Assembly: GCA_964187785.1 (NCBI GenBank)
Contig: OZ076410.1
Span: forward strand, 89,342,001-89,406,000
Direction of reading: 5' to 3'
Source: Amphiscolops sp. MND2022
Lineage: Eukaryota
DNA length: 64,000 bases
The position numbers and the translations under genes are program-made. Below are positions 4,059-48,459 of the stretch, piece by piece (positions within the stretch are counted from its first letter, which is position 1; every line of letters begins with the position of its first letter). The notes beneath the pieces were generated by a model. It was given only the letters and a program-made list of their open reading frames with translations. It did not search any database and was not told the DNA's origin.

Positions 4059-5223
4059 CAATGATTATAAAACTATATATAACAGTTTCAATTAAATACA
4101 ATTTTTAACAAAATGTTACTATATTTAGATCAATAGCACATGGATTTTTTAACATTCTCACAGCTGAAATTGTGAACGACTTTACTGATACTCATCCTAA
4201 GAAACCCAAATTAGCACCCCAAACTTCCCCAAAGTCTTTGACACATGTGACTGACAACCCACTAGATGACTTCTCTGAAAACCAAACAAATTCAATTAAT
4301 AACCCAACTGGTATTACTTCCCCTCCACATGGTTATACAAAACGTCCAAATAGACTTCACATGACATGATTCAAATTATTTCCAAAAAGGAAAAAATTTC
4401 ATCAACCCAAAACTCATCATAGAACTTTCACACTTCATTCCTCATCAGTGCAACACCCAATTTTACCTAATTACTCAAATGTCAATACAACTCCAAATGA
4501 CATTATCGTTGATATCACTACTGTCATTGATGACACTGACAGCCCTATCAAAGTATATGCCAAAACAAATTACCCTTTTCCTCCACCATCTTTTTAAACT
4601 CAATTCATTCTGCTTCCACTTCTCCTATAGAACCCTTGCCTGCCAAATCCAACTCTTTTCTCACTTGAAAAACTCTTCAAAATTGAGCTCCTTTCTCCGC
4701 CTCAAACAACTTCAGTTGTCGAAAATAGAATACACCGTCCACATAATCCTTCATTAAAAGTTCGCGTGTTAACACAAACGCCTACTAAAGTCGATAAAGC
4801 TACTCGTTAGTGTAACTTTCTTTTTATTACAAAATTTTCACAATGACACAAGCACAACTCGATCTTCAAAAACAACTAGATTAAACTTCTTCTGATCTTA
4901 CTACACAACCTCTCTTTAATGATTCTCCTCTTCTGTTTCTTGAACCTATTGATGAAGTAAACGCTCATTCTTCAGAACAAAGTGAACAAACTGAACATAC
5001 CACTTCTTCCAAAGTTCACACTCTTCCTGATAATATACATGAAAAACCACCACCACCGAAAAAAACGCTACGAAATTATGAAAGATCCTGTCTTTCTCTC
5101 TTCACCCATATCTCCTCCTACCTTACCTTCTAAACCTTCACTTTCTACAAACGATGATGATCACTTGAACTACTTCTCTCGTAAGATAATTTCACGTTTA
5201 AAGCACAACTGACTTCTGTCCAT

Positions 5224-5991
5224 ATGCATCCTACTGACTATACATTCCGTCTATATGACAAAAATCAAGATTTTTTCACATCCATTGCTTCCAAAATATT
5301 CTCTCTATACCAATACTGGCTTGACAATGAAGGAGTAAAAATCTTCTTTCTACAGTTCAATTTTCTACGCCCATCAAAATATGATTTAAAACGGACGAAT
5401 CTGATCATTCTTTCTCTCAGTTTCACAAAAGCTTCTCATCATGAAACATACACTAATTTTCTATAGCACACCAAACCACAGAACTACATTTTTGTTAATT
5501 ACAATAACACTTCACCATACACAATGACAAATTTATACACAATAGACCGACCTCGCTTAACAGGCTATCTTCGTCACTATGATCCTATAAAACAATCTTT
5601 CTGTCTACTTCCTTACAATGTCACATCACGCCCATTTATTTTACCTCAAGAATATCTCTTACACTTCGATGATTTTTTGTTGCCTTGCAACGTGCCTACT
5701 CAAATTGTGAAACCTCTCACAGTTATAAAACATCTTGTTTATTCTCCACTCGATAATAAAGACAAATTTATTATTTCGTTCTTGCTAAACAATCACAATC
5801 CTTTAACGAATTGCTCTTTATTGCTGCCAAAAATCATTTCATATATGGTAAAAACAGAGCACAAAGCAGAACATAAACCGCCTCCTATTGAACATATATC
5901 ACCTACTCGCAACACTTGTGAAAAGTTTTCATCAGTACTCAATAAACGTACTCTTCGCGATAGAACACACCTATTGGACCCGTACAACTGA
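5224..5991 (+). CDS. Family C post-env accessory ORFs (80 aa and 155 aa), unknown function
   Basis: ATG-started ORFs 5224-5466 and 5524-5991 downstream of env, with protein-like composition and no recognised domain. Confidence 0.35.
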
Positions 5992-8900
5992 AACTCCACT
6001 GAATCTCTTATCACCACTCTCACACATTTAATACACTGATATGACAGAACACACAAACTCCTACAATCACTCGACTTAGATTCACAATGTATCACACAAT
6101 CATCACAAGCAATACAATCTGATCTTGAATCTATGACTACTTTTTTTTAACTCAACTAATCTTCATTAAATCTTTACACAAGGTAATAAAATTTCTCTAA
6201 GGGTTTTCTCACAAGGTAATTCCTATGGAACACTATTTGTCACTAATGTTTTGATCTTCAATACAGGTAATATTTTTGTACCTTTTTATCTGAATCTTTC
6301 CCCAGTTCATATATGAAACTTTTTCTTAAAACTTATGGTAAATATGTCCTTCTCTTTCATACATACACTTGTCTACTCTTTGAACTTCTGATACATGCAT
6401 TGTTTTTCTCTTATACTACACTTAAAGCCTTCTGGATTGAAGGATTGAAAACATAAAATACAAGAAATTAGACATTTTTATGGGGATTAAAAACATATAG
6501 AATACAAGAATTTAGCACCCAATTATGATACTATATAGTACCAAACCGTATAGCACACATGTTGAACAACGCATGCTGAAAATTTGTTGACAATTTCCTC
6601 AGAACTTCTCTGTTTTAAAAACATCTCTTCTTCCTTCTCTTTCCTCTTTCCCCATTTGGCTGAATCCGTTCACTGTGACCTCCCACTACCAGGACTTCTC
6701 GCAGACTCCACCAACTGTTGTCACATCATCGTATTACCAAAATTCTCAGCATAGCTCCTCTTCAGGACCCTAAAGAAAAAACAAAAATTTCTCTCCTCTA
6801 CGAAAGCCAATAGCCTAAAAGCCGCAATCTTTCGCACCATTGCTTTAAAAATGTCTCTCGAGATTAATAATGATAAAGTCACGATACCTACAAAAAGATC
6901 TTTTCTCAAGGACTTATATAATGTCTGCAAAGTAAAAAAAAGAAGCACATTAATTTTGAACAATATGCTCGCATCCACCTCGATGGACCCAAGATAGCAT
7001 TTTGCGAAACCGTATGGGACACGGTTTTCCTATTAAATGCTTCCTTTACAACTAAAGATAAATATTTTTGTGCTGCGGTCGATGAAGCTTGCGAAGCTTT
7101 TAACAAAATGATGCAAGACTTCTGGTATACACAAAACTAGAAATCTACGACCCACATAAGCATCAAACTCATCCTCCTCAACAACATCCACTATACTAAC
7201 TTTGAATGCAAACTCTCTTCACTTTGCAATCTCTCTTCATTTCACTACTTGACAGTTCTTCATCTCTCTTCAATGAACGTAATCGAAATAAAACTTCTCT
7301 ACTTCTCTTCCAAATCTCCACACAAACAATTTTCTTCACTGCGTTGCAGCACCTTTTTCTCTTCGATTGGTCATCATCATCCATCGTCTTCACTGGCCCC
7401 ATCTTCTTCGCTCGCCCACCCACCCTTTGAACTGGTCTCCAACACTTTGCCGCTCTCAACTGCTTCAACTGGTCTTCAACACTTCGCGACTTGACAACCC
7501 ACTGGTCTTCACTGCTTCAACTGGTCCTCTGGTCACTGGACTGATCATTTGCAACCCAGAATTGAAGTACAATATTTCAAAGTCAACTGAGATTCAACTC
7601 CACTTATTGCAAAAACAACTTGACTTGTATCTTTTTTACTTGTATTACTCGCGTAATCTCAAAATTAGCATCTTTTGTAATCGTAATTATAATCGTATAG
7701 CCCCAATAACTAGTGTTTTTGTATCCTCCTAATAAATGTAGTATAACTACCTTGTAACCACAAAATTTGTCTCTACAATTATTTATAATTACCCATATTT
7801 TCTTCAGTATGATACAACTCTATAATACAACTATTATTCATTTTTCTTATATAGTACAAAAGTCTTTCTTATGGAACAAAAATTTTGCTAAGATTTCTTT
7901 ACAGAACACAAAAAGCTTTTCTTTGAAACATGTGAAAGAATCTTTTAATCATTTTAACTTTCACTCAACAAATGTGGAAAAATTTTTTTCTCAATATCTT
8001 TTGGTACAACAACTTTTCAAACGTTTGAAACATTTCAAATGTAGACCAAATTCTTCGCATCCGCTTGCTAGTCACTTTTGTGGAAAATGAACTTGAACTA
8101 GAACCTAGACTTTCCAAAACTTCTTCACTTTTGGTTCAAAAACCCGCCACTGTTTGTTCACAACTCATTGACACCTTCATAGAATCTCTCTTCAACTCGA
8201 AAAAGTTTTGAACTCCGAAAAACTCGTGTTGAAACACACAAATTTTTCAAACAAGCTGATGGCAGATACAAAAATTAGCACATAGTAGTAAACAATTTGT
8301 CAAACAAAAACTCGAACACAACTGTCAGTCACCTCAAACTGAAATTTTTGCACCAATTCAAACCGTCACTCACATAAGAAGTCAAATCGTCATAGGTTTT
8401 TCTCACTTCTCAAGTATGGTACACTTTGGAACAAAACCCTTGCATACCACATCTGGAACTCATGCATACAACATCTGAAATAAACACTTTTAAAGAACTC
8501 CTCAATTACAAAATGCAGATACATGATTTTAATTTTCAAAAATTCCCGGTTGATTGTGATGCCATGATGCATGTCCTCAAGAAGTTTCAAATGTGTATCT
8601 AACTTTGAAAGCCACCAACTTTTCTAAAGACAGATGTCACTTCAATTCGAAGTCTATTAGACTGCTGACACCCGAAGATAACTTCATTAATACTTAATCA
8701 ACATCTTGGGATAACCTAATTACTAACCCATCTTGCTGTTGTCACTTTAGATTGTTTAGCTTGACAATTTGATTAGTATAATCATTGATAAAATTGTAGA
8801 ATATATCTACTCAGAGAAAATAGACTATGATCTGAAGAACAGTCTTCCCTTAGGAGAAAGACCTAACTGAGATCTCAGAGATACTTGAAAATAGAAATAG

Positions 8901-29280: not shown

Positions 29281-29690
29281 TAATAAAAATATCATAGGGG
29301 TTGTTACTAGTGTGAGGAAATTTGTTGAAGGTGAGGAGATAGACAAGAAAGATTGTTTGAATGTGTTATAAAAAATTGCTTGCAGCATTCGGCATTACAT
29401 TTTAAATTAGTCAGGGTAAATATGTGCGAATATGTGGACGAACAGGAGGCGAATCTCTAACAATATGTTTAAGTTGTTAGTGTTAAAGTATGAACAGAGA
29501 CTCAAATTTAACTGTGGTGTGAGGGAATTGGATGTGGGTTTAAGTAGTGAAAATCAACGATGATTTCTATTTTGAGTCGTAGATTATAAGAATCTAATCT
29601 TAAAACTTCTTTTCAGCGATATTTGGGAGAGGTAGTAGTTTTAGAGTTTGGTTTATTAGTTGCAAGATGATCAAGTCTTCACGAGGATAG
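29281..29690 (-). mobile_element. Family C-like Gypsy fragment (left part of the target into which element A inserted)
   Basis: The reverse complement shares TTAAACCCACATCCA and EKEVLRLDSYNL ~ ETELKRLQTSNL with 1690-1780. Confidence 0.55.
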
Positions 29691-29755
29691 TGTCGCGTTA
29701 TGACTAACGCTTAATCAATAATACAAATGCAACTACAACAATAAAGTGCTCAACA

Positions 29756-30022
29756 AAAAACACCTGATTTAATAAAAAGCTCTACAAACATCCCAGGGAT
29801 ACTCTCCCGTTTCTAATCAAAAATTCCCCTGCAAAAATACAAAGCTAATCAATTCCCTTTGTGCTACCGCGCAGTTTATGATTAAAAACACCTGATTTAA
29901 TAAAAGGCTCAACTATCTTCCCAGGGCTTCGGAGCCGTTTCTAATCAAAAATTCCCCTGCAAAAATACAAAGCTAATCAATTCCCTTTGAGCTACAGAGC
30001 AGTTTATGATTAAAAACACCTG
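29756..30022 (+). repeat. 128-bp tandem repeat in U3 (about 2.1 copies)
   Basis: CACCTG at 29761, 29889 and 30017; same structure in the 3' LTR. Confidence 0.9.
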
Positions 30023-30221
30023 CATAAACAAAGCACAAAATTGAACTAACCTGGAGACGGAGGGAGATGAAGATAAAAAATTAATAAAGTAGGGCGGCTG
30101 GCAAAAGAAAGGGAGGCAGCAGAATAATAAAGTAAATTCTCGGGGGACGCAAATACCGTGGGATTGCACAAATGAAAAAATTCTATTATTCACCGCGGAG
30201 ATCCGAAATCTAAAGCTAAGC

Positions 30222-30300
30222 TCTGATTGTCTGAACGAAAACCAGACCAATCAGGCACTTCGGCAGAAGTGCTGAGCTGTTCTTATACGGCGCGCGCAGG
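30222..30300 (+). promoter_or_regulatory. Putative LTR promoter: inverted CCAAT boxes and a TTATA-like element
   Basis: CTGATTG(G/T)...CCAATCAG followed by CTTATAC and a pyrimidine-rich initiator-like region; the first box is intact (ATTGG) in the 3' LTR. Confidence 0.5.
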
Positions 30301-30583
30301 CTGGAGCCTCTTTCTTCCCTCTAACCGGCAGAGCTTCAACACCTAAAAAGCTCTCTCCCACTTTCTCTTCTCCTCAGCTTCTCTCCACTTTACTCAAAAA
30401 CTCATTTCCCACTTTTCTTTTCCCTCGGTCTTATTTCTTCAAGACCAAAAAATTTCTATCTTTCATTCTCCTCGTCTCCTTCCTTTGGTCTTAAAATATT
30501 TCAATCTTGTGCTAAGTCCCACAGCACCAGCAGAATTTTCTATCTTAGAAAATTCTCCTCAACTCAATTTGGACTCCGGTTTG

Positions 30584-30589
30584 GTGAGT
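30584..30589 (+). promoter_or_regulatory. Candidate major splice donor G|GTGAGT
   Basis: Consensus donor downstream of the putative promoter and just upstream of the hairpin array. Confidence 0.45.
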
Positions 30590-30646
30590 GAAAAATAACT
30601 TAGTTTCTTTTTGTGGAGATTTCTGATTCTCCCTTTTCTAACTAAG

Positions 30647-31062
30647 TTTTATCTTAGTAAAATTCCGCTGATTTCATTCAGCGGTTGTTTAAATTTTTTC
30701 TTAGTAAAATTCCACTGATTCTACTCAGTGGTTATCTGAATTTTATCTTAGTAAAATTCCGCTGATTTCATTCAGCGGTTGTTTAAATTTTATTTCAGTA
30801 AAATTCCGCTGATTCTACTCAGTGGTTATCTGAATTTTATCTTAGTAAAATTTCGCTGATTTCATTCAGCGGTTGTTTAAATTTTATCTTAGTAAAATTC
30901 CACTGATTCTACTCAGTGGTTATTTGAATTTTATCCTAATAAAATTCCGCTGATTTCATTCAGCGATTGTTTAAATTTTATCTCAGCAAAATTTCACTGA
31001 TTCTACTCAGTGGTTATTTGAATTTTATCTTAGTAAAATTCCGCTGATTTCATTCTGCGGTT
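30647..31062 (+). repeat. Array of nine 47-bp hairpin units, alternating types A and B (94-bp dimer)
   Basis: Stem starts at 30665, 30712, 30759, 30806, 30853, 30900, 30947, 30994, 31041; seven units in the 3' LTR (about 47361-47682). Confidence 0.95.
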
Positions 31063-31839
31063 ATCTCATTTCTAATTACAAAAATATTAAATAAATGGTT
31101 GGCGTTACACTAGTATTTACAAAATCATTTCACCGTGTTTACCTAGTTAGTTTGTTCCTTATAAAAAGTCCTAATACTGTCTCTCCACCCAACAGAGCAG
31201 TGACTTCAAAAAACTAAAAATTGCTGGTTTAAATTATCACCGGCTAAAATCATTTTTCATTTGCGGCAGATCTAAAGCATTTTCAATATGAAAGTGTAAA
31301 AGCTTGCATTTTAGTCTGTAAATTTTAATACTAATTTTCTGATGTACATAAATGCTCTCTGATATATTTTGTGAAGCTACTTTGCTCAAAATTGGAACAA
31401 ATCTTTCAAATTAACTGAAGTGAAGTAAGTAGTTGTTTTGCTGCTGTATTTAACAAAAGATGGAATAGATACTGAGATGCCTAAAAAATTTTATTTAGTA
31501 CTATTGTATGTTCACGTGATATAATTCAACATATTTCCTTTCAATACTTTTCCACTTTTCAGATGACTCATTTACATACACTGCCTTGCACTACTCACGC
31601 AACTCCCTTTGTTCGCACGTACACGCAAGGCATTTCCTTTCTAGTATTACACGGAGTAAGCTTTGAGACTTTCTTACTCATTTACAATCAATAATAGAAC
31701 AGCCACCTGAAAGTACTTTGCAAAATGCTACATAAGCTGAACTGACTAATACTGATAACAACTGAACAGTCACTTGAAAGGGAAAGTGATGCAAACAGGA
31801 AAAAGTAAATAGTAAAATTCATCCATGCGTGCGACAAAC

Positions 31840-31856
31840 TGGTGCGACCAGTGAGG
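31840..31856 (+). promoter_or_regulatory. Primer-binding site TGGTGCGACCAGTGAGG
   Basis: 3 nt after the LTR end. The complement reads as a T-stem strand (CTCAC) + 7-nt acceptor strand + A + CCA, like elongator-Met or Ile(UAU) tRNAs; exact tRNA not assignable. Confidence 0.8.
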
Positions 31857-32866: not shown

Positions 32867-34324
32867 ATGGCTGCGCAAAATTACTTGGCATATCCAGACC
32901 TCGGCCGAGACCAATTCACAGGAACAGACCCAGATCAAGATCCTGAACAATTTATACAGCTCATTGAAAAGAAGTTCCGGTTTTCTCATGGTGATACCCC
33001 AGCCAACGGACCAGCACTTGATGACTACAACTTTAGAAGAAAATCCTATTTTGCTACACTATTAAGAGGACCCGCAGCAGAGTGGTTCGAGACCAGCATC
33101 ACAGACGCTAACACTTGGGCAGAAATCAGAGAGAGGTTCATCACACGATTCGCAGATGGCAGAAGCAAATTTAGACACATGATGGAAGCCGAACATGTCA
33201 TCAGACGAGATGGAGAAGAAATAAAGAACTTCCTACACAGAATCAAAATAGTAGTGGGAAAAGGATGGCCAGATGACATAGCCGGAGTTGCACAGAACAA
33301 TAGAGACGCCGAAAGGGCAGCTCAAGACAGACAAAGAAGACAGAGATGCATTGACTACTCCCTAAGAGGCCTTAGACCTCCAAAGCTGAGGGAAAAGGCA
33401 CACGAATATCTAATGGACCACCCGAACGCAACCTGGGAGCAATTTTCACAAGCAGTAATAAATAAAGACCTTTACTATACTGTAACTACCGCCCTAACTG
33501 GCGGAGAGTCACACGCAGACCCACTCATACAAGAAATGCGAGACGATCTGAAGGGAATTAAACTACAAATATAAGAACAGATGAATAACACGGTCAACGC
33601 GGTAGAGAAAACGGTAGACCCTAATGCTACAGGAAGAAGAATGGCCACACGATTCTGCGGCTATTGCCGAACAAACGGGCATACACCTAACTGGTGCAGA
33701 AAGAAAATGAGAGATGAGGAGGTCAAGAAGGTTCAAAACGAAGCTAACGCAGAGAGAAGAATAACATTCACCAACGATTACAATAAAAGAACTGGACCTG
33801 AGCACGGCTCAAGATTTCAGACAAGACTACCCGATTCAGAGATCCGAAAAAATATGGCGGTTGCACATCAACTGGCACTTGCGGGAGCCATGCAAGCAAC
33901 CCCCTCATGGAACCGATTTGATAGATCGCAGAACAGAAACTTTAACCCAGAACGCAGATCTACAAATTCTAGATTTAGCTCCGGTAACCAGAGATTTTCG
34001 CAAGAGGTTAGTAGACCTTTTTCCAATAATTCTAACAGTTCCAGAAGCATTTCCCCAGGACCACAGAGAGTTAGATCTCCTTTTAACTTCAACAGAGACC
34101 AGCCTAACTCTTTTAATCGCAACATACAACCTCTCCCACCAAGGAATAACTCAGGTTTCCAGAGACAACAACAAAACAGAAACGAAAGATCCAATACTCC
34201 TACTCAGTCTTACGAGCAAAGATTCCCGAAAACTAACGACATGGGAAGATCTAACACAGTACAATTTTTAGAGACTGACTACTCAGTGAACTCAGTAGCC
34301 GATTTTCGTCCTTTAAACTACTAA
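32867..34324 (+). CDS. gag: Family A Gag with CCHC knuckle; one in-frame TAA at 33572-33574
   Basis: ORFs 32867-33574 and 33581-34324 are in the same frame; capsid-like LLRGPAAEWF and knuckle CGYCRTNGHTPNWC. Confidence 0.92.
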
Positions 34325-34401
34325 GGTCTCCGAAAAATAAAAGTAGCAGCAGTGCCCCACTAAAATTTAGTCTTAATCTTTATTATTTTGCTGCCGGAGA
34401 C
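34312..34401 (+). promoter_or_regulatory. -1 frameshift signal T_TTA_AAC with 7-nt spacer and stem GTCTCCG/CGGAGAC
   Basis: The heptamer is in gag frame, separated from the TAA by one codon; the -1 frame is open into the protease; stem arms at 34326-34332 and 34395-34401. Confidence 0.8.
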
Positions 34402-37400
34402 TCACAAAAAGATAGTGGCTTGGAAATTGAATTTCTACTGGACACTGGGGCAACATCTTCAATCATCAACTATAGAACATTTAGAGAACTTTGTCAATTT
34501 CAACAAGATCTTGAACTCAGTAGGAGCAACAACACAACACGGAACTACTCTGGTCAAATCATCCCTATGATGGGATACATTTCGCTAAGACTCTACTATG
34601 ACTCCGACGGCCAACATAACTTCCCTCTGACAATCTGGATCACCGAAATGAAGACACAGAACCTTCTTGGAATGAATTTTTGCCAAGAACAAGTCAACAA
34701 AATACACTTCGATCTTCCCGGCATAGAACTCAAGAAACCGACTAATACCTTCTGTTACGGCAGTCTTCAACTCAACAAAAGTTACCCTTATGTATCGCAA
34801 ATCTTCTCTGTCCGGATTCCTTACTCAATGTATATCGAGCCAAAAACGACAAGGTGTTACAAATTTGCACCGGAGAACACTAAGAACTCTTTTCCTCCTG
34901 GATCTACGTTCCTACCCAACAGAAAGGCAGTCTCTACAGGACTCAACTTCATAAATGTCCTTTGTACACGGTTTGAGAAGACTTTGCCAATCGTTATGGA
35001 AAACAACAAGAACCATACAATCACGCTAGTAAAAGGAACAATAGGATACTCCATGCTAGACGTCATAGACAAAGAAATCCCAAAATATCAGATTAGAAAT
35101 CCTACCGAACCCGCTTACACCATTTTAAGCGAAAACGAAGAATACAATGATTGCTTCTTACTACACTCTACTATCCCTTCACAAGATATGAACGATTGCC
35201 TCAGAATAGAAGGAGGAAATTCCACAACAATACTCAGCAGACCAGATTCTGTCATCATCTTTGTCCCGGCTGATCTAAAGCCAGCCAAAGGCTTCTCTAA
35301 AGAAATTTTAACAAAAATACCTTCACTAAAAGACTCTTGCGCAAAACAGAAGCCACAAAAAGGCGACACAATACCATACTGGGATACAACTCTAAAGCGA
35401 TTTATATACGTCCTAATAACTAAAGCTAAATCGAAAGACAAAATCGACCCACAAATCTTAGCCCAATCGCTGGAAACACTAAAAGCCCACGCTAAAATGA
35501 ATAATATCAAAACTGTTTCTATGTTACGAGAAGCATCAGAACTAGAGCACTTCCAATGGCAAGACGTTACACAAATTATTCAAGACATTTTTGCCTACTC
35601 AGAAATACAACTCCGAATTTATACAAGAAACGAGCTAGATGTCTACGCCATGACTACCAGAGGAGACCCCGAATATGCACTAGAAGATGAAATACAACAC
35701 TTTTCAGAAGAATTCCACTTGAAGCACAGAGAACTGGAAACTGACTTTACTAGAGACGCAAAGTCCTGTCAACCACCTTGTGAAGAACAATTCAAGATAT
35801 TTAGGCCCAAAGAAGACAACGAACGTCTCATTGAATACTACCTACAATATCAGAACAAGGAAGCAGTTCAATACATCAAGGAATTTGACTTTCGCTACTC
35901 AGACCTCACAGACGAAGAACTTGTTCTTCTAATAGACCTACTAATGGATGCTAGAGATGTATACTCACAACACAAGTTCGACGTTGGAAAGACTAGACAG
36001 AAATTTAACATTAAGCTGGAACAGGGAGCAATTCTGAAGAGACAGAGACCTAGCAAAGTACCACTACACCTACGTGAGAAGTTAGAAAAACTACTAACAC
36101 AGCTCAAAGAGGCTGACATAATAAGAGAAATGGGAGATGACGACGAAATGGGATCCCTATTCGTAAACCCCATCATCCTACAACCAAAACACGATTATGT
36201 TAAGCTGATGATAGACGCAAGATACCTGAATTCAGTAACTGATCTAACAAACTACTCCTGGCCCTTGGAACCAATCCAAACCATAATGACGCTCATCAAC
36301 GGGAAGATATTCTCAGTAGGCGATCTCTCTTGCGCTTTTCACCAAATCCCACTAGATGAGCCCACACAGAAGCTAACTAGCTTTATAATTGGCGGTAAAC
36401 AATACACATTCACCAGAGGATTCTACGGACTTAAAGGATTACCCAGCTTCTTCAGCCGTATGATGACAATCCATTTTGAACCCCTCATCAAGAAGAAACA
36501 AGCAATAACCTACATAGACGACACGTTAATGCAGGCCAAAAACAAACAAGAGATGTTCACAGTTATCCAAGAATACCATGACCTACTACGGAAAGCAGGA
36601 CTCAAGGCAGCTCCCGACAAAACACTATTCTTCTTGCGAAAAGTTAAGTTCCTGGGACATGTGATTGCAGCAGACGGAATACAACCTGTAGCTAAGCGAG
36701 TCAGGGATCTTCACAATCTCAAATCGCCAAAAACAAAAACTGAGGTAAAAAGCTTCCTAGGGGCTCTGGGATTCTATAGCTGTTACATCAAGAATCTACA
36801 TGTCGATAGCCGGCCTTTCTACGAGCTGACCAAGAAAGATACAAACTTTTGTTGGAAACAAGAACATGAAGACCTCTTCCAAGAAATAAAGAAGAGAATC
36901 AGCGAAGACACAGTTCTTGCAGTACCTTCAACAAAACACCCATTTCATATACACGTAGACTCGTCCAATGTGGGGACAGGATGTATACTCATACAACAAT
37001 TTCCAGAGGGGAAACGGATCATCTCTTTCAATTCCAGAATTTTCGCAAAAGAAGAACAAAAGATGTCCGCACTACTTAGAGAACTATGTGGAATAGTCTC
37101 AGCACTACAAACATATGAGCACTATATCATTGGATCTCCCTTCCCGATCTATCTATATTGTGACCATAAACCAATTCTTTATCTCTGGGGACGAAAAGGA
37201 CAGGTTTCACCGCGATTCTTTAGGTACCAAGTGATTATTTTCAAGTTTCCCAATCTAAAGATAATATGGACGCCGGGAAGCAACCTAGCCTTCCCCGATA
37301 TACTCAGCCGAAATGTCTCAATCGAAGAACACAAGAAACACCAACTTAGCCACAAGATCCTACCCAACGACATACACTTCTTCGACGAGCACGGGACTCA

Positions 37401-39949
37401 AGTTCACTACAAAATCAAACACGAGGAAAACGACGAAACTTCAAAGAACGACTTCTACCCTATATTGTACGAAAAGGGGGATGAACGGAAAATCCTTCAC
37501 CTACAAAACGACGGTAATAACTTCACAGTTAACAATGTCTACGAGGAACCTAACCTGCCGAAGATTGAATCGGCACAAAGTTGTTTTGACGCCGGAAAAG
37601 AAATCAGAAATTACGAAGAGCTACGAATCAGATCTGGCACGCGAGAAAGCACTTCCGATATATCACAAAATACTTACAGCTCGGTTAACAGCGACGCCGA
37701 TGACGAAGCCCCTGCAGATGATGAACGTCAAGAAGTGAACGAAACAAATTATGAGCCTAATACGAGTTCCCCGACACTCCAAGAACGTACCCCTGAAAAT
37801 GATAAGGCAGCCGACAATTACGAGCTCCTTAAAACCACAATAGGAAAACAAAAGACATCAACACGAGAACTCATAGGCCAACTCGATAAGATTTCCAAAG
37901 AAGCGGAGCTAAACGTCACAACAATTTTACAAGAACAAATTAATGACCCAGTCCTCAGTGTGGTTCGACAATGGATGAAGACAGGAAACAAGCCTACGCC
38001 AAAGTCACCAGAACTACAACATTCGAAAGGCCTCATGCGCTACTTTCAGGAATTTGACCGACTAACTATAGAAGAACAGGGAAATCTCCTCTGCTACAAC
38101 GAGCCAACTGACGACCCGGCCGACGAAAACCTGAGAATCTGCCTACCTCTCTCTCTATTTCTAGCTTGCTTCCGTATGGGACATTACAACGACCTGGGCG
38201 GCCATATGGGGGCTGAGAAAACTTACCTAAATGCTAAAAGATTCTACTACTGGCCCGGAATGCACGACTGGATCTGTGCCCTCACACAAGACTGCGTTAG
38301 TTGCCAATCTAACAAATCCAAACAAAGAAGAAATAACGAAGTCCCACTGGAAGACTGTGAAACAGAGACCCAAGTATTCAGAACAGTTCATATCGATCAT
38401 AAAGGACCACTCAACCCTCCCAGTCGTGGAAATTCACACTGCCTTCTCATCATTGACGCATTCTCGCGCTATTTGATGGCATACCCGGTCCGAGACACAG
38501 GAGCGCACTCAACAATCAACGCTATGGAAAAATGGATAATGCACTACGGGATACCACAATCTATCATAGATTGTGGTATCCCGTAGTGCATTATCCATTT
38601 TTGTATTATGATGTATTATGATAATACATGATAGAGGAACAGCTTTTGTAAACACTGAGTTCGTCAACTGGACAAAAGAGTTTGGCATTACTCTTCGACC
38701 AAGAACTGCACACTCACCCTGGACAAATGGCAAAGTCGAGACGCAAAACCAACACATCGCAAGGTACTGGAGAAACTTCCTAAATGAATCAGGAAATAAC
38801 TGGGCCCAACTAGCCGCTAAACTTGCATTCGCCCACAACACAAGCGTCAACTACACAACAGGAAAGACACCCTACGAGATAGTGTTCTGCAACAAACCAC
38901 AAATACCTATGAGTCTGAAGCTGGGACTATATAGGAATAAAAACAAGAACTGTAAATCACAATTCTGTAACGGACTACCTCCACACCGCCATAGTGAAAA
39001 CCACGTAAAAAACGAACTATTAAATGGACTATTACGACCACAACTATCCCAAAACTTGCTGGAAAGAGAAACAGCCTTCAAAAAGATCTACTCATCCACA
39101 TACGAAAAGTGCAGACAACAAACAGCTCGATCACACGCCTACAGAAACAGATTTAAACTCGGAAACCACCTCAACATAGGACAAAAGGTCCTGCTAGAAA
39201 ACCATCGAAAAGATCTTTCTAAAAGCCAAAAACTTCAGCAACTACGATTAGGACCCTTTACAGTCACCAAGAGAATCACCTACACAACTTACCAAATAAC
39301 CGAAGATCGAAATCCAGAGAACCTCCGAACTGTACATAGAAATCACCTAATAGAATATTTTCCCAAAGAGGAAACACTCCCCCCTCTAATCGAAGAATAC
39401 ACAACTCCCCACCGTGGAGACACGGATTTTTATAACAATCTCGTCAAGGGAAGAATTGAACAACTTAATGTTTCAGAACCACAAACAATGGGAGATCTCT
39501 GCATATTGCCAGTTCGGACCCAACAAGATCAAATACTTGCCCGCAAAAGAGAACAAACCCCACAGAGCACATACTCTGGTATCATTTCTCCAGAAAACCA
39601 GTTGTTGGCAACCCCACAAACTCCCGATCAGCCTTCGACCTCACATCCTCGCGACACCGCAACCCCTATCCTAACGTTGACTCAACGTCAACTAACTCCA
39701 GCACGACCAACTAACAACCAGGCGTCTTCAAATAAATCACCGACCCCTTTGCAAGAATTACGAAGAGCTGTAGCCCGCCACATAGAAAGAAATCCACGAT
39801 ATCAACGAGCACAGCCCAATCAACCAGCACAACAGTCCGTCCTTCGTGAAAGGACTCGAATTGGTTACAAAGATAAAACCTTATCATGCCTTGCCATAAA
39901 GTATATCTACAATTGCCCTGGCAAGTTCCACGAGAACTTCAGTCCTTAG
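34312..39949 (+). CDS. pol: Family A Pol: protease, macrodomain, RT, RNase H, integrase; frameshifted by a 58-nt insertion at 38569-38626
   Basis: LLDTGATSS; GDLSCAFHQI..YIDD; HVDSSNVG..ELCGIV..CDHKP; H-H-CVSC zinc finger; IDHKGP..HDRG..GKVETQN. Confidence 0.96.
35200..35625 (+). CDS. TARG1/OARD1 (Poa1p)-like macrodomain within Pol
   Basis: RFIYVLITKAK..QSLETLKAHAKMNNIKTVSM..LEHFQWQDVTQIIQDIF parallels TARG1 [48 protein letters not shown]. Confidence 0.8.
38528..38602. repeat. Perfect 37-bp inverted repeat with a 1-nt loop (foldback insertion in integrase)
   Basis: 38528-38564 is the exact reverse complement of 38566-38602. Confidence 0.97.
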
Positions 39950-42588: not shown

Positions 42589-42657
42589 CAACGGATCCAC
42601 ATCTTCGAATAAAAGATTTCACATGATTGATTTTGCGAAGATTGCAAAATTTCAAAA

Positions 42658-44802
42658 ATGAAACTATTTTTCCTACTCTTTTTATGCGCCTATTACGCGC
42701 CCGTTGTGATCTCACAACGCCCTACGCCAAACCTCGCTAGCGTTGCTAAAAAATTGCGAGTTACTCATTTCGACTGCGGCGAAATGACCCAAAACAAGCT
42801 CTACGCATTGAATCAAGTAGAGCAATGCAATGTGGCCCCAGAAAACTTAGAAGTAAGTCGTGCTAGCGTAACGTTATACACTAAACACTTTCGCCGCACT
42901 ATCAACGCCACTATGTGCCGTGTGAAACATCAGAGTGAAGAATGGCATTGTGGTCATCACGACCACTCCAGTATGTCAATTCTACACAACGGAATCACTA
43001 GCGATCTTTCCTTGTCCCCCGAAACCTGTAAGGCAATGGGTGAAGGAAAAGAAGTCATAATCCATGGACAACTCCTTAGATTTAAAAAAGGAGTGAAACA
43101 AGTACAGACGAGAAACGCCAAATACGGAAAAAGTTGGGACGGGGTACGCGACCCTGATACCCGCAATGAGTGCAAAACAGGAGGATGGATCAAACGCGAA
43201 ACTTTCGAATCTCACATCCAAGACGCTGAGTTATCAGTCAAAACCCGAGATGGAAAGGTCCTCACACCGTTTCAGATGGTCCTTCCCTGTCCTTTGGAGC
43301 AACTTGGTTGTGAAACGACGTCACTGGACCCCTACGCATACACATGGGCAGAACCCGATAATTGCGTGCTTGCAGTACACAGAAAGGAAATGGTGAACAT
43401 GATAAAACACGGATCTAACTACTATTTTGTCAGCGGCAACGATTCCACTACCAAATTTTTATTCGAGGTCTACAACAGACCACAAAAGTACTGCAACAAA
43501 CCCGACGATGTATACCCGACCAACTACGAATCCCTGTACGTTTCAATCCAACTTGGTGGCTTCGACATGACCTCCGGCAGAAGACTCGGCATCTCCATGG
43601 GCGAGACATCTAAACTTCAATATTACTCACCTGACGATGGTTCTGGTAATGGCCGACTCCACCTCTTCAGAGGACCCAGCGACTCTAACCCCAATACACC
43701 ACATTATCTCAACATGGATTACGAGCTCCACCAAGGAACAAAGTTAGATTATCTCTTTTTTGAGAGCACCCGCTTACTTGAAGCTTCAGAAATCCAGCTT
43801 TTGAAAGCTCAATGTGAACAAGAAAGAACACAAATCCTCACCATCTTGATGCTCTCCATGGAAAACCCACGACTTGCCGGATACATGCTCACGGGAAATC
43901 GCTCAATGTTCCTGAACACAGATGGTAGCCTAGCATGGCTCTACCACTGCCCAGAATCCCACTCACCTCTTCACACGATGAACCAATGCTACGACCGCAT
44001 ACCCATCTTCTACAAAGGAGTGGTCGCCTTCGTGGACCCCATCACCCGACAGACTTATCCTAATGCGAACGTGCACAATTGCAGCGATCGCATTAAGAAC
44101 CTCTTCCAACTGGACATGGAAGACAAAGATTCCTGGTTTACCCTCACTCCTTCACCCGAACACCGTGACCGACCTGCTATCTTCGGACCCAAGGACATCC
44201 AACCACTGATTACCAGATCCTTTCCTGGATCACAAGACGCAGGAATGTACACGCCAAAACAACTCTCGGAATTTTGGGATAACATCCTCATCAGCGCAGC
44301 TTCACGAAATGCCCTCCAGAAGTTTTCACGAGAACTCATCATCCCTTCAATGGCCCATAGCGGACCCGAATCATTTGCGTATTATGCACCCCGTACCGAT
44401 TTTTACGTTGACGGTATGATATCACCCGACTACTTCAAAAATCAATTCCTCGAAACCTTCGGAAGTATATCGTACGTCCTCGAACTCTGCGGCGCGTATT
44501 TTGGCGCCTTTCTTTTTATTAAATTCGTTATAGATATCACGGTCCTAGTCTTCCGCTATTTCGAACTTCGTCACCTTACTGGTAATACCCTGAGCTTCAC
44601 TAAAACCTTGCTCAGTGCTTCGTACAATCTTTTCTTTACCTCCGTTTTAACTTCCGTATTCACCCCGCGGGCCCCTCTCGAGGATAGCATTGAAGAAAGA
44701 ACAAAAACGGAAGACGAAATAAAAGCGGTAGAACTTCAAAATCTGAAACAAAAAGAGGAACCACTATACCCCTCAATACAGAGCTTCGTAGCTCCAATTT
44801 AA
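42658..44802 (+). CDS. env: Intact envelope glycoprotein, 714 aa, class III fusion-protein-like (chuvirus G / herpesvirus gB type)
   Basis: Signal peptide MKLFFLLFLCAYY; Cys-rich ectodomain; QCEQE..NPRLAG..G..C..CYDRIP resembles gB WCELQ..NPNAIAS..G..C..CYSRP; C-terminal hydrophobic anchor. Confidence 0.88.
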   Translation: MKLFFLLFLCAYYAPVVISQRPTPNLASVAKKLRVTHFDCGEMTQNKLYALNQVEQCNVAPENLEVSRASVTLYTKHFRRTINATMCRVKHQSEEWHCGHHDHSSMSILHNGITSDLSLSPETCKAMGEGKEVIIHGQLLRFKKGVKQVQTRNAKYGKSWDGVRDPDTRNECKTGGWIKRETFESHIQDAELSVKTRDGKVLTPFQMVLPCPLEQLGCETTSLDPYAYTWAEPDNCVLAVHRKEMVNMIKHGSNYYFVSGNDSTTKFLFEVYNRPQKYCNKPDDVYPTNYESLYVSIQLGGFDMTSGRRLGISMGETSKLQYYSPDDGSGNGRLHLFRGPSDSNPNTPHYLNMDYELHQGTKLDYLFFESTRLLEASEIQLLKAQCEQERTQILTILMLSMENPRLAGYMLTGNRSMFLNTDGSLAWLYHCPESHSPLHTMNQCYDRIPIFYKGVVAFVDPITRQTYPNANVHNCSDRIKNLFQLDMEDKDSWFTLTPSPEHRDRPAIFGPKDIQPLITRSFPGSQDAGMYTPKQLSEFWDNILISAASRNALQKFSRELIIPSMAHSGPESFAYYAPRTDFYVDGMISPDYFKNQFLETFGSISYVLELCGAYFGAFLFIKFVIDITVLVFRYFELRHLTGNTLSFTKTLLSASYNLFFTSVLTSVFTPRAPLEDSIEERTKTEDEIKAVELQNLKQKEEPLYPSIQSFVAPI

Positions 44803-44838: not shown

Positions 44839-45327
44839 CAACTAGACTCAATTTTCGACCTACCAAACCTGGACGAAGACAACCCTAACCCTAACCTCGA
44901 GGATGACTTAGAAATCGAGCCCCTATCACCATCGGACCTGCTATCCCCAATATCACCCACAACAATCAACTTCCTCCTAGACCCACCAGACTCAACAGTT
45001 TCCTCTCCCCCAAGGGTGCCTACAACAACAACCTCATCAACAACATCAGAGCGACCCCCCTTTCCGCTGTCGTTCACAGAAGAGGTAGCACCTATCCCAT
45101 CAACTCAACATCCACCCCGATTCGGCGGAAAAGATATAAGAAGAATCTTCCCCAGAAAACACCACCACCAATGGAACAACGAGATAGCGGACCAGGCACC
45201 ACTAAATAAACAACACAAAAGGGAATACTATACAAAAAGGGCCCGATATGTTAAAAGGCCTAGATTCAATGCAGACTTAAAGTATACCCTACTTCCCCAA
45301 TTCTCATCATGGAACATCGTTTTCTAG
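44839..45327 (+). CDS. ATG-less open frame after a TTTTAG acceptor: acidic, Pro/Ser/Thr-rich, with a basic C-terminal cluster
   Basis: The frame is open from 44839 (QLDSIFDLPNLDED...) to the TAG at 45327 and contains KRARYVKRPRF. Confidence 0.45.
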   Translation, partial: QLDSIFDLPNLDEDNPNPNLEDDLEIEPLSPSDLLSPISPTTINFLLDPPDSTVSSPPRVPTTTTSSTTSERPPFPLSFTEEVAPIPSTQHPPRFGGKDIRRIFPRKHHHQWNNEIADQAPLNKQHKREYYTKRARYVKRPRFNADLKYTLLPQFSSWNIVF

Positions 45328-46430
45328 GACAACAAGAGACAAGAATACACTATAGAGAACCCTGCACTCAAAGGACAAAGACTAACTGTCCCCTTAAGAT
45401 CAATATCCGCACAATGAATCACAGGCTAAATCCTAATGCTGCCCCCTTCATCCCAAAAAATAATCCTTCCTCCCATACTACTACACCCGATTGGCCACCC
45501 ATATCAAAACCAGATGATCCAGAAGAACAAGAGACTCTCGAGGGAATAGAAAGATTGAGCAAATGGATATCAGAATTAAAAACCTCAACCAAATCACGTT
45601 GCCAAAACGAAAAACTACTAGAAACCCCGGTTCTTCGGAAATCATTTCCCTTAACAGAAACCTTACAGTCTAAAACGAAACTTGATGGCAAAGTGAAACA
45701 ACTCTACAATTCGGCAGAAGAAGCAAGGACTAGATGTCTACAATTAGAGACCACAATATCCAACTTACAAGCAACTATAAAATACCAATGCTCCCTCCTC
45801 AGAAAAACTAATATCATCGATGGGAGAAACAATGAACCCTTCCTGTGGCAGATTCCCGCATTTTCTACACTATACCGGAAAGCAAAAACCTTCCCGAATG
45901 AACCACTAAGCAACTTCAAATGTAGCTTCACCAGCCCCATCTATACCACTCACCTAGCAGGCTGCAAAATATCCCTTAGACTATTTCCATATGGGATAAA
46001 CCTCTTTCGTGGAACCCACTCCTCCATTTGCTGTGAGCTCCATTTTAGCGACTTCACCCTCCCTCGAACATGGCCCTTCGAACGACAATTAGAAATCTCC
46101 ATCATAGATCAAAAAGACAAAAACAACAAGTGGTCTACCTACTTCCCAAACAACTCTGACAAGAACAACCAAGACGACACCCACGCCGGCACCTACACCC
46201 TTCCTGAACTCATGCGAGAAGATTTCATCCCTCACACAAAACTATTGGTCAACTTCAGGGAAGCCTTTTTAAACAACGACTCTGTAATCCTCCAAATTAA
46301 ATTTAAAAATCCTCCCCCTTTAAAATCCCAAGTGCTAAAGAATCCCCCCTTCATTTCTGACCTACCCCAGATACCTCATTCTTTTCTCCCTGCCAGGGGG
46401 GTGAGCTGTCGCGTTATGACTAACGCTTAA
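45309..46430 (+). CDS. PAM2 motif + coiled coil + TRAF-C/MATH domain protein (373 aa; probable start ATG 45414)
   Basis: LNPNAAPFIP at 45426-45455; helical heptad-rich region; MATH 45840-46304: FLWQIP..FTSPIYT..GCKISLRLFPYG..RGTHSSI..WPFERQLEISIIDQ..FLNNDSVILQIK. Confidence 0.88.
   Translation: MEHRFLGQQETRIHYREPCTQRTKTNCPLKINIRTMNHRLNPNAAPFIPKNNPSSHTTTPDWPPISKPDDPEEQETLEGIERLSKWISELKTSTKSRCQNEKLLETPVLRKSFPLTETLQSKTKLDGKVKQLYNSAEEARTRCLQLETTISNLQATIKYQCSLLRKTNIIDGRNNEPFLWQIPAFSTLYRKAKTFPNEPLSNFKCSFTSPIYTTHLAGCKISLRLFPYGINLFRGTHSSICCELHFSDFTLPRTWPFERQLEISIIDQKDKNNKWSTYFPNNSDKNNQDDTHAGTYTLPELMREDFIPHTKLLVNFREAFLNNDSVILQIKFKNPPPLKSQVLKNPPFISDLPQIPHSFLPARGVSCRVMTNA
46395..46406 (+). promoter_or_regulatory. 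Polypurine tract of family A (AGGGGGGTGAGC)
   Basis: G-run immediately 5' of the 3' LTR. Confidence 0.8.
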
Positions 46431-48455
46431 TCAATAATACAAATGCAACTACAACAATAAAGTGCTCAACAAAAAACACCTGATTTAATAAAAAGCTCTA
46501 CAAACATCCCAGGGATACTCTCCCGTTTCTAATCAAAAATTCCCCTGCAAAAATACAAAGCTAATCAATTCCCTTTGTGCTACCGCGCAGTTTATGATTA
46601 AAAACACCTGATTTAATAAAAGGCTCAACTATCATCCCAGGGCTTCGGAGCCGTTTCTAATCAAAAATTCCCTTGCAAAAATACAAAGCTAATCAATTCC
46701 CTTTGAGCTACAGAGCAGTTTATGATTAAAAACACCTGCATAAACAAAGCACAAAATTGAACTAACCTGGAGACGGAGGGAGATGAAGATAAAAAATTAA
46801 TAAAGTAGGGCGGCTGGCAAAAGAAAGGGAGGCAGCAGAATAAAAAAGTAAATTCTCGGGGGACGCAAATACCGCGGGATTGCACAAATGAAAAAATTCT
46901 ATTATTCACCGCGGAGATCCGAAATCTAAAGCTAAGCTCTGATTGGCTGAACGAAAACCAGACCAATCAGGCACTTCGGCAGAAGTGCTGAGCTGTTCTT
47001 ATACGGCGCGCGCAGGCTGGAGCCTCATTCTTCCCTCTAACCGGCAGAGCTTCAACACCTAAAAAGCTTTTCTCCCACTTTCTCTTCTCCTCAGCTTCTC
47101 TCCACTTTACTCAAAAACTCATTTCCCACTTTTCTTTTCCCTCGGTCTTATTTCTTCAAGACCAAAAAATTTCTATCTTTCATTCTCCTCTTCTTCCTTT
47201 GGTCTTAAAATATTTCAATCTTGTGCTAAGTCCCACAGCACCAGCAGAATTTTCTATCTTAGAAAATTCTCCTCAACTCAATTTGGACTCCGGTTTGGTG
47301 AGTGAAAAATAACTTAGTTTCTTTTTGTGGAGATTTCTGATTCTCCCTTTTCTAACTAAATTTTATCTTAGTGAAATTCCGCTGATTTCATTCAGCGGTT
47401 GTTTAAATTTTTTCTTAGTAAAATTCCACTGATTCTACTCAGTGGTTATCTGAATTTTATCTTAGTAAAATTCCGCTGATTTCATTCAGCGGTTGTTTAA
47501 ATTTTATCTTAGTAAAATTCCGCTGATTCTACTCAGTGGTTATTTGAATTTTATCCTAATAAAATTCCGCTGATTTCATTCAGCGATTGTTTAAATTTTA
47601 TCTTAGCAAAATTTCACTGATTCTACTCAGTGGTTATTTGAATTTTATCTTAGTAAAATTCCGCTGATTTCATTCTGCGGTTATCTCATTTCTAATTACA
47701 AAAATATTAAATAAATGGTTGGCGTTACACTAGTATTTACAAAATCATTTCACCGTGTTTACCTAGTTAGTTTGTTCCTTATAAAAAGTCCTAATACTGT
47801 CTCTCCACCCAACAGAGCAGTGACTTCAAAAAACTAAAAATTGCTGGTTTAAATTATCACCGGCTAAAATCATTTTTCATTTGCGGCAGATCTAAAGCAT
47901 TTCCAATATGAAAGTGTAAAAGCTTGCATTTTAGTCTGTAAATTTTAATACTAATTTTCTGATGTACATAAATGCTCTCCGATATATTTTGTGAAGCTAC
48001 TTTGCTCAAAATTGGAACAAATCTTTCAAATTAACTGAAGTGAAGTAAGTAGTTGTTTTGCTGCTGTATTTAACAAAAGATGGAATAGATACTGAGATGC
48101 CTAAAAAATTTTACTTAGTACTATTGTATGTTCACGTGATATAATTCAACATATTTCCTTTCAATACTTTTCCACTTTTCAGATGACTCATTTACATACA
48201 CTGCCTTGCACTACTCACGCAACTCCCTTTGTTCGCACGAACACGCAAGGCATTTCCTTTCTAGTATTACACGGAGTAAGCTTTGAGACTTTCTTACTCA
48301 TTTACAATCAATAATAGAACAGCACCTGAAAGTACTTTGCAAAATGCTACATAAGCTGAACTGACTAATACTGATAACAACTGAACAGTCACTTGAAAGG
48401 GAAAGTGATGCAAACAGGAAAAAGTAAATAGTAAAATTCATCCATGCGTGCGACA
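46407..48455 (+). repeat. Family A 3' LTR (2049 bp)
   Basis: TGTCGC...GCGACA followed by the TSD ATAG. Confidence 0.97.
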
Positions 48456-48459
48456 ATAG

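Follow-up and report, generated by a model that had tools for sequence, protein, structure and literature searches.

The envelope gene (env) described here probably belongs to a Ty3/Gypsy element that has transposed recently and is one of the gB-type 'ancient errantiviruses', and its lineage is a 'complex' variant with about eight selected accessory units. It was found in a window of 64,000 nucleotides (the whole stretch of DNA analysed) from Amphiscolops sp. MND2022. A more ambitious scenario, possible if on balance unlikely, is that this Gypsy lineage independently became a complex retrovirus-like agent. Such an agent would spread between cells by means of a class III envelope, carry about eight accessory genes, including a TRAF that acts as a dominant negative and an eraser of ADP-ribose, both directed against innate defence, and possess a new small-protein family growing by duplication.

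The host of env was a Gypsy element of 18.8 kb (29691–48455) with an LTR identity of 99.2% (16 substitutions in 2049 aligned bases between the 5' and 3' LTRs; Table 1). Hallmarks of Ty3/Gypsy (Metaviridae) were present: paired TG...CA LTRs, a short target-site duplication, and motifs resembling a primer-binding site and a polypurine tract. A 14-mer of the primer-binding-site motif occurred 337 times in the genome, versus once for a control, and no tRNA gene was found at any of the six loci scanned. Gag and pol overlapped in the −1 frame, with a canonical slippery heptamer seen at 34312–34318. Pol had the order PR-RT-RNaseH-IN with the Gypsy-type Pfam profiles PF17917, PF17919 and PF17921; the matches to PF24626 and PF03732 in the element were under the Pfam cut-off. 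The Pfam search revealed no BEL/Pao domains (DUF1759, Peptidase_A17) in the element's ORFs, while DUF1759 did match in an unrelated element at 53202–53840. Domain order and Pfam set support a Ty3/Gypsy host, as proposed in an earlier note on this DNA, rather than a BEL/Pao one. An env-less Gypsy family was also present in the window.

Other copies of the element had LTR pairs that were 99.0–99.9% identical, and many env copies tied in score. Among the top-scoring candidates, 48 full-length env matches of at least 94% were found in the genome, 42 of them stop-free. In the window copy, gag had an in-frame stop (33572–33574) and pol was split into two pieces (34279–38586 and 38612–39949), with a small inverted rearrangement near 38570–38620 interrupting the integrase frame. 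The earlier note had contrasted these lesions with an intact env. The lesions were real, but the contrast did not exceed chance: at the lesion density of gag-pol, the probability of a lesion-free env was 0.40–0.54, and the intact env beside a broken gag and integrase therefore carries no weight.

Table 1. Features of the env-bearing element and of the second family in the window (positions are those of the window).
Feature	Position	Strand	Remarks
Decayed remnant of family F2	2..7196	+	includes F2's own accessory ORFs
Broken env of second, distant family F2	2029..4058	+	other copies have a ~900-aa env; overall identity 26%
5' target-site duplication, 4 bp	29687..29690	+	identical 4-mer at 48456-48459
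5' LTR, TG...CA, ~2.15 kb	29691..31836	+	with 47-bp-period tandem array
Primer-binding-site-like motif	31840..31856	+	begins TGG, 3 nt past LTR
gag	32867..34324	+	Retrotrans_gag, zinc-knuckle-like motif
pol, PR-RT-RNaseH-IN-SH3/p58	34279..39949	+	PF13975, PF00078, PF17917, PF17919, PF17921, PF00665, PF24626
TARG1/OARD1-like macrodomain	35239..35634	+	within Pol, between PR and RT; PDB 4j5q E 2e-10
Accessory ORF, 128 aa	39886..40272	+	third-position excess P 2.5e-5
Antisense ORF, 196 aa	40443..41033	-	Ser/acidic-rich N-terminus, conserved C-half
Accessory ORF, 73 aa	41310..41531	+	dN/dS 0.02-0.06; open in 14/15 sister stretches
Accessory ORF, 131 aa	41531..41926	+	start overlaps preceding stop; dN/dS 0.02-0.06; open in 12/15 sister stretches
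Accessory ORF, 113 aa	41919..42260	+	4-strand meander + helices; dN/dS 0.04-0.10
env, 714-aa type I class III fusion glycoprotein, chuvirus-G/gB type	42658..44802	+	
Open frame, 162 codons, after env	44839..45327	+	acidic/Pro-rich; dN/dS 0.11
PAM2-like motif, putative coiled coil, TRAF-C/MATH domain	45414..46430	+	Pfam MATH_2 E 7e-12; dN/dS 0.16
Polypurine-tract-like run	46395..46401	+	ahead of 3' LTR
3' LTR	46407..48455	+	

The stop-free translation of env had a hydrophobic signal segment at the N-terminus, a single further hydrophobic segment of the transmembrane type (~aa 603–637), four N-glycosylation sequons and 16 Cys, which agrees with its earlier description as an intact type I membrane protein. 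Its sole Pfam match was PF24664, Monjiviricetes_fusion (E 2.5e-32; 112 bits, cut-off 27). In the Atlas, feature matches of 0.93–0.97 were to the Monjiviricetes G, rhabdovirus G and gB clusters, at a recognition value for env (1577) under the Atlas's reliable level. The best viral match in Foldseek was the G of Tacheng tick virus 4 (E 2.5e-25), and among the matches listed for the PDB every row was herpes gB. VIA gave a Z of 7.2 to gB and Mokola G, with an rmsd of 2.4 over 80 residues for gB domain II. Since the full-length monomer model was poor (pLDDT 56.6, pTM 0.37), Foldseek TM-scores were 0.12–0.28 and Z was always below 8, the fold call rests on the E-values and on the agreement between methods. 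Identity to named viral G proteins was merely 13–17%, and a sequence-only search of solved structures gave no relative. Neither Pfam nor the structural matches listed, which were class III, included a baculovirus/paramyxovirus F-type envelope. The class III (chuvirus-G/gB-like) assignment made in the earlier note is thus supported.

Fourteen ectodomain Cys were kept in 88–100% of aligned relatives, and the whole ectodomain, including both putative fusion loops and these Cys, was conserved down to ~28% identity. Of 35 non-redundant relatives, 25 had a tail motif (YxxPhi/YPxL-like), against an expectation of 4.4, and 8 had PT/SAP, which the window env lacks, against an expectation of 0.2; these motifs were picked after viewing the sequences, and the 35 relatives share ancestry. 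The YP motif may simply serve endocytosis. Sites resembling splice acceptors lay upstream of env but were not conserved across families.

Comparison of subfamilies showed that env evolves under strong purifying selection (dN/dS 0.03–0.04; dS 0.52–0.75, dN 0.02). DNA-only alignments of env had 175 and 190 mismatches at third positions versus 11–27 at other positions, while the LTR control was flat. Across eight elements, env and RT/RH identities co-varied (Spearman 0.97, from 28 identity pairs that are not independent), and the trees were not in conflict, the RT tree being partly unresolved and confined to these elements. Env diverged in step with RT across five families of the genome, and at least five multi-copy families carried env at the same position. 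The low dN/dS and the env/RT co-variation support an old and maintained association of env with Gypsy, in line with the capture history suggested before.

A homologous but broken copy had also been noted at 2071–4058. With the window env as query, tblastn recovered it at 2973–4049 (35% identity, aa 269–622, E 4e-62), with a weak N-terminal piece at 2068–2223, and PF24664 matched it with E 1.2e-13. This F2 copy contained stops and frameshifts and shared ~79% DNA identity with a high-copy family that has a ~900-aa env. In other copies, the accessory ORFs of F2 had 418, 449 and 179 codons and no Pfam match. Env relatives of ~40% identity were found on contigs of 11–14 kb. The idea that these are RNA viruses and the direct donors was rejected for one such contig, L061, which is a gag-pol-env Gypsy element; scans of viral contigs gave no relative.

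Besides env and the macrodomain in pol, seven more ORFs flank env: four small ones, one antisense, one of 162 codons, and a RING-less coiled-coil and TRAF-C gene. The gap between pol and env holds 2.7 kb of selected ORFs, and two further ORFs follow env. The earlier note did not mention this gene set, and no report of such a set was found in the literature searched. Accessory ORFs had dN/dS values of 0.02–0.16, in agreement with the third-position analysis; as judged from these alignments, selection of the coding type acts on all seven flanking ORFs, though only weakly on the antisense one. The latter was present in the F1 subfamilies and F1b, with a weak third-position excess (P 0.003 and 0.03). 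The four small ORFs are apparently paralogues, and the 128-aa ORF is a probable member of this small-protein family. The 131-aa ORF had no Pfam or Atlas match. For the 113-aa ORF (model pLDDT 84, pTM 0.76), the fold search gave a best Z of 4.7, and several PH domains appeared in its rows beside unrelated entries; there was no fold match with Z ≥5 and no viral match at E ≤0.001. These results do not establish the fold as new, nor as that of a PH domain. The 162-codon frame had no ATG in the window copy; counterparts occurred in all four related families, those of F3 and F4 being ATG-initiated. A 176–182-aa ORF in F1b and in deleted copies looked MATH-like by eye, with an hhalign probability of 0.1% and a MATH_2 match (E 0.008) under the cut-off.

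The TRAF ORF matched TRAF5/TRAF4 in the PDB (E 4e-7) and in a profile comparison (E 1.7e-23), and its MATH domain was of the TRAF type by profile. Neither Pfam matches nor Cys/His patterns indicated a RING or zinc fingers in six aligned ORFs. The PAM2-like motif at its N-terminus (Pfam E 0.006, under the cut-off) was found in F1 and F1b and was absent from F3 and F4. The ORF was open in just 10 of 15 sister stretches, and its rate of evolution exceeded that of env and of the small ORFs. Of the 12 best TRAF-MATH loci retrieved from the genome, 10 adjoined env. The macrodomain was canonical-looking in the F4 copy (E 2.5e-20) and degenerate in F1, without the Gly-rich motif that F4 keeps; the motif aligned to human IGCGLD was kept in F4, altered in F3 and lost in F1. 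A dUTPase-like reading of the spacer between PR and the macrodomain was discarded after a search gave no match. TRAF and macrodomain were present in four families, with none in the distant family F2 or in L061, so neither is needed for env function.

We consider the following mechanism likely. Env trimers in the host membrane would wrap Gag-Pol particles, and the tail motifs (YxxPhi/YPxL-like; PT/SAP in relatives) would direct sorting and budding. Two Cys-linked loops at the tip of a beta-rich domain would then drive fusion with another cell, which would probably open access to the germline. The accessory proteins are less certain. The RING-less TRAF-C protein might bind receptor or adaptor tails in competition with host TRAFs, and the TARG1-like domain might bind or remove ADP-ribose marks, both dampening host defence; this reading is close to evenly balanced, with doubt slightly ahead. 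That the small paralogues are adaptors binding host proteins is doubtful, and is suggested by their size, duplication and weak PH-like resemblance.

The accessory ORFs might instead serve the replication of the same fusogen-bearing element (RNA export, translation or stability via PABP-binding PAM2, particle assembly) and have no part in anti-immunity, which we regard as a tentative but substantial alternative. The PAM2-like motif in F1 and F1b fits such a role, as does the position of the macrodomain inside Pol and its degeneracy in F1; the extra ORFs of rotifer elements have been argued to have auxiliary replication roles, in the available portion of PMC5408684. However, PAM2 is under the Pfam cut-off and absent from F3 and F4, the MATH domain is TRAF-type by profile, and the faster evolution of the TRAF ORF would fit host interaction.

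Env itself could be retained for some purpose other than infection, for instance to anchor particles to membranes or to move them within a syncytium, in an element that transposes inside cells only. According to the accessible text of PMC13524379, how gB-type errantiviruses enter cells has yet to be worked out, and herpes gB depends on helper glycoproteins; an env-less Gypsy family also shares the window. We nevertheless find this improbable, given the conserved ectodomain, fusion loops and Cys and the dN/dS of env. Far less probable still is a recent insertion of a chuvirus glycoprotein (EVE) carried passively by one Gypsy copy. The best viral fold matches are chuvirus G, and insect chuviral glycoprotein EVEs do occur near Gypsy fragments (PMC10084718), but identity to named viral G is only 13–17%, and an outside relative with 40% identity also proved to be a gag-pol-env element. 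The fixed env position in multi-copy families, purifying selection and co-divergence refute it. We give equally negligible probability to a domesticated, syncytin-like host gene under host selection: the intact env frame beside broken gag and integrase, which might suggest one, is expected by chance, and env is enclosed by young LTRs, flanked by a target-site duplication, and has dozens of dispersed sister copies.

The element, possibly an infectious one, matters more for its gene set than for its envelope, which by itself extends an already published class by a single lineage. If the TRAF-C protein and the macrodomain act against defence, this would point to TRAF signalling and ADP-ribosylation as antiviral pathways that restrict retroelements in this animal. 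Env is also a tractable case for asking if membrane fusion by the envelopes of gB-type errantiviruses can do without helper glycoproteins. Lentiviruses and foamy viruses are characterised by complex sets of accessory genes; for Gypsy elements with env, the literature searched contained no description of such complexity. Surveys demanding env near pol would tend to overlook such elements.

Among known systems, insect errantiviruses such as gypsy, ZAM and Idefix, which serve as the model of infection passing from soma to germline, likewise combine a Gypsy element with env. Unlike here, their env is of the baculovirus-F type, and they are not known to have a comparable accessory set. Sacco et al. 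are said to have described in 2022 the capture of a glycoprotein by a nematode metavirus. Jingchuvirales/Monjiviricetes glycoproteins (Tacheng tick virus 4 G) share Pfam family PF24664 with the window env and are its best structural matches, but identity is 13–17% and the element has no nucleoprotein or RdRp. The earlier note had assumed that gB/chuvirus-type envelopes occur mainly in BEL/Pao elements. This premise did not hold: the available text of Chary & Hayashi (eLife 2026, PMC13524379) describes them as widespread in metazoan Ty3/Gypsy and as abundant as the F-type; in that study, chuvirus-like baits from mosquito BEL/Pao elements were enough to recover 114 gypsy elements. Its prefilter allowed a POL-ENV gap of ≤1 kb in regions of up to 10 kb (relaxed to 3–5 kb for some phyla), and it required multiple near-identical copies (>98% across three ORFs). 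The gB-type envelopes are characterised there by a five-domain trimer with fusion loops and an assigned type of cysteine bridge. Like those gB-type 'ancient errantiviruses', as described there, the present element has the order gag-pol-env, a signal peptide, a Cys-rich class III ectodomain and a transmembrane segment, and is multi-copy and young with env diverging with pol. It departs from the published description in its length of 18.8 kb, in having 2.7 kb of selected ORFs in the gap from pol to env, and in the two ORFs that follow env. The words 'accessory', 'TRAF' and 'macro' were not found in the accessible main text of that paper, nor acoel terms in its accessible text and supplements, nor five peptide motifs and one primer-binding-site motif in supplements whose long cells are partly displayed. 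Anakin (Dezordi 2020, PMC7642597, in the text available) is likewise an LTR element that carries a chuvirus-like class III glycoprotein, but it belongs to BEL/Pao, whereas the element here has Gypsy-type domains and no BEL/Pao domain matches. Captured host-like enzymes or extra ORFs are shared with other LTR elements, as far as the available portions of those papers describe them: macro-domain ORFs in fish epsilon-like ERVs (PMC4977317), antisense ORFs in plant Retand elements (PMC11963269), and, in bdelloid rotifers (PMC5408684), single ORF3 types that take the place of env and do not clearly deviate from neutral evolution. In contrast to the rotifer elements so described, about eight units, including a TRAF-C gene, here coexist with env under purifying selection.

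The envelope (env) ORF encodes a protein with a hydrophobic N-terminus, a single further hydrophobic segment near residues 603–637, 16 cysteines and four sequons. Its sole Pfam match was PF24664 (Monjiviricetes_fusion; E 2.5e-32). A second copy at 2029–4058, disrupted by stops and frameshifts, also matched PF24664 and was 35% identical to the intact protein over residues 269–622, in agreement with the earlier note, which had described an intact env and a diverged, broken homologue. An AlphaFold model from 28 sequences was weak overall (pLDDT 56.6, pTM 0.37), with residues 70–310 mostly at 70–90. The top viral Foldseek matches of this model were glycoproteins of chuviruses and their Monjiviricetes relatives (E 2.5e-25, 13–17% identity), with gB, rhabdovirus G and GP64-type proteins of orthomyxoviruses next; every PDB match listed was herpes gB. 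A class I/II or non-viral best match was not seen. VIA-align gave Z 7.2 against both gB and Mokola virus G, with an rmsd of 2.4 across 80 residues for gB domain II. Atlas features placed the protein with class III clusters at 0.93–0.97, with a low recognition value. The structural scores are modest alone (Z < 8, TM-scores 0.12–0.28), but since the fold matches agree with Pfam and the Atlas features, the previously claimed class III assignment was confirmed.

Conserved features were surveyed in 35 env relatives, retained from 63 of at least 600 aa after removing those >70% identical or tail-less. Fourteen ectodomain cysteines were retained in 88–100% of aligned relatives. Two short cysteine-bearing loops at the tips of long strands were conserved and are likely the fusion loops. 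A YP-type tail motif occurred in 25 relatives (4.4 expected; maximum of 11 in 500 shuffles) and a PT/SAP motif in eight (0.2 expected), the motifs having been selected post hoc and the relatives sharing ancestry. Both motif types are tied to ESCRT budding and fit a trafficked, budded protein; the YP motif may alternatively be an endocytosis signal.

The element carrying env has a pol of the order PR-RT-RNaseH-IN with Gypsy-type profiles, in which no BEL/Pao domains were found with Pfam, and its attribution to Gypsy therefore stands. The gag/pol overlap is in the −1 frame and contains a canonical slippery heptamer. Only 16 substitutions separate the two LTRs over 2049 aligned bases, which marks a young insertion. 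In this copy, gag contains a stop and IN a small rearrangement. At this lesion density an intact env has a probability of 0.40–0.54, so the contrast drawn earlier between an intact env and broken gag and IN is no evidence. Four of seven sister left-half stretches had a full-length gag frame, and in four of seven the pol frame was open to the stretch end.

Features of the window and of related stretches (window positions unless a stretch is named)
Feature	Position	Strand	Remarks
LTR element (family F1)	29691–48455	+	18.8 kb; TG...CA LTRs, 4-bp TSD, PBS-like and PPT-like motifs
env ORF	42658–44802	+	714 aa, no internal stop
Accessory ORFs between pol and env			128, 73, 131, 113 aa; antisense ORF 196 aa
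Accessory ORFs 3' of env			162-codon frame; 338-aa ORF
LTR-internal tandem array	30545–31220; 47259–47840		47-bp period, two units alternating; 3' LTR ~97 bp shorter
YPDL at Gag start	32867–32910		In F1 and F1b (relatives FPDL or YPDI); presumably an ALIX-binding late domain motif
Direct repeat directly 5' of env	42321–42421; 42489–42589		101 bp (93%); pyrimidine-rich AG before each copy
Direct repeat in F2 remnant	1–398; 1235–1632		398 bp (99%); duplicated accessory-ORF part, not LTR
Hydrophobic frame	9242–9838	−	198 codons, no Pfam match; may be a host membrane-protein exon
Second Gypsy element	12351–19631		Decayed, no env match
Partial duplicate of its 5' part	25792–29280		88–97% identical; ends ~400 bp before env-bearing element
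Assembly gap	49038–49237		200 N
Tandem duplication	50903–57698		3.4 kb (97%); BEL/Pao gag fragments (DUF1759) on minus strand
176–182-aa ORF	L025 2464–2994; L072 4096–4644; L073 4084–4632		Weakly MATH-like; in F1b and internally deleted copies
Candidate host TRAF exon	L083 1414–1815		TRAF-MATH match, no env beside; 37% identical to F3 element TRAF
F2 accessory ORFs	L048 3465–4721, 7610–8959; L050 9315–9854		418, 449, 179 codons; no Pfam match
Three ORFs 3' of env, outside relative	L061 9651–12095		Coiled-coil-like; no confident Pfam match

The genome contained at least five env families: that of the window element (F1), the related F1b, F3 and F4 (74%, 58% and 57% identical to F1) and the distant F2 (26%). 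At least 48 full-length F1 matches at ≥94% were found, 42 of them stop-free, among 62 scored candidates; a 14-mer from the PBS-like motif of the window element occurred 337 times. F2 env is ~900 aa long with 98 matches, and the 2029–4058 copy is a decayed member, so that two diverged families are present in the window as proposed. F2 elements occur in very many near-identical copies and have a single very long frame that runs from gag into pol, with ~700 aa preceding the Gag domain. A representative search returned 1255 relatives at E ≤0.001. Three database relatives (55–56% or 41% identical) had no close counterpart in the genome, pointing to related radiations in other genomes.

Between three F1 subfamily representatives, env had a dS of 0.52–0.75 and a dN of ~0.02. 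DNA-only env alignments held 175 and 190 third-position mismatches, versus 11–27 at the other positions, and the LTR control was flat. Env and RT/RH identities of eight elements ranked together (Spearman 0.97, pairs non-independent), and the env and RT trees did not conflict, the RT tree being partly open. The sole long outside contig read (L061), considered as an RNA virus, proved to be a gag-pol-env Gypsy element. Selection, co-ranking and this outside element together argue for an old env capture, as the earlier note had held.

That note mentioned neither the accessory ORFs nor the macrodomain. Env and the accessory ORFs of this young, multi-copy family are under purifying selection. Between F1 subfamilies, dN/dS was 0.02–0.06 for both the 73-aa and 131-aa ORFs, 0.04–0.10 for the 113-aa ORF, 0.11 for the 162-codon frame and 0.16 for the 338-aa ORF. 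Every sense accessory ORF showed a third-position excess within F1 (P 2.5e-5 or better), which was weaker for the antisense ORF (P 0.003 and 0.03). Frames were open in 14 (73-aa), 12 (131-aa), 14 (next small ORF), 13 (env) and 10 (TRAF) of 15 env-selected sister stretches. The small pol-env ORFs, two to four per element, align as a single family that is also represented in F3 and F4; links are strong inside F3/F4 (E down to 1e-17) and weak to or among F1 ORFs (E 0.001–0.1). None of 71 relatives from a profile search had a Pfam domain, and structure searches with the confident model of the 113-aa ORF (pLDDT 84) found no clear match.

The 338-aa ORF, which lies 3' of env in F1, F1b, F3 and F4, encodes a RING-less TRAF-C domain together with a PAM2-like motif and a putative coiled coil. 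When the 12 best TRAF-MATH loci were retrieved from the genome, ten proved to adjoin env. Internally deleted copies with the 176–182-aa ORF keep a TRAF piece, with most of env and pol gone, and are possibly a non-autonomous family. The same four families carry a TARG1/OARD1-like macrodomain within Pol, between PR and RT; the F4 version looks canonical and the F1 version is degenerate. In F2 and L061 no TRAF or macro matches were found and the extra ORFs differ from those of F1; extra ORFs may be general in this clade.

Env-coated particles would probably bud and fuse with other cells, thereby gaining germline access as insect errantiviruses do. RING-less TRAFs act as dominant negatives, and the TRAF-C protein and the macrodomain may blunt host signalling and ADP-ribosylation, at slightly less than even chances. 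A role of the accessory genes in the element's own RNA handling, rather than in blunting the host, is a lesser possibility. The boldest reading, and a less likely one, takes the window element as a complex, retrovirus-like agent with putative anti-defence genes.

The premise that gB/chuvirus-type envelopes occur mainly in BEL/Pao elements is outdated. The part of PMC12440569 available restates the older view, and that of Dezordi 2023 (PMC10084718) reports no clear Gypsy capture in arthropods. A gB-type env in a Gypsy element is an already known kind, published by Chary & Hayashi (PMC13524379). The main text of that survey does not mention accessory, TRAF or macro genes; related elements could be present in its figures, its deposited sequences or the longer cells of its supplementary tables. 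No TRAF/MATH gene or TARG1 insert in a Gypsy element was found in the literature covered, which is weak evidence of absence as most subscription journals and Repbase were outside its scope. According to the excerpts available, rotifer LTR elements carry extra ORFs (PMC5408684) and fish ERVs carry macro domains (PMC4977317). As far as its accessible text describes them, the survey's filters favour short pol-env gaps, whereas the window element has several ORFs in this gap. Anakin, with its chuvirus-type glycoprotein, is described in the accessible part of PMC7642597 as BEL/Pao, in contrast to the Gypsy element here. Taken as a whole, the window element is a variant of the known gB-type errantiviruses whose accessory genes form a complex set under selection.
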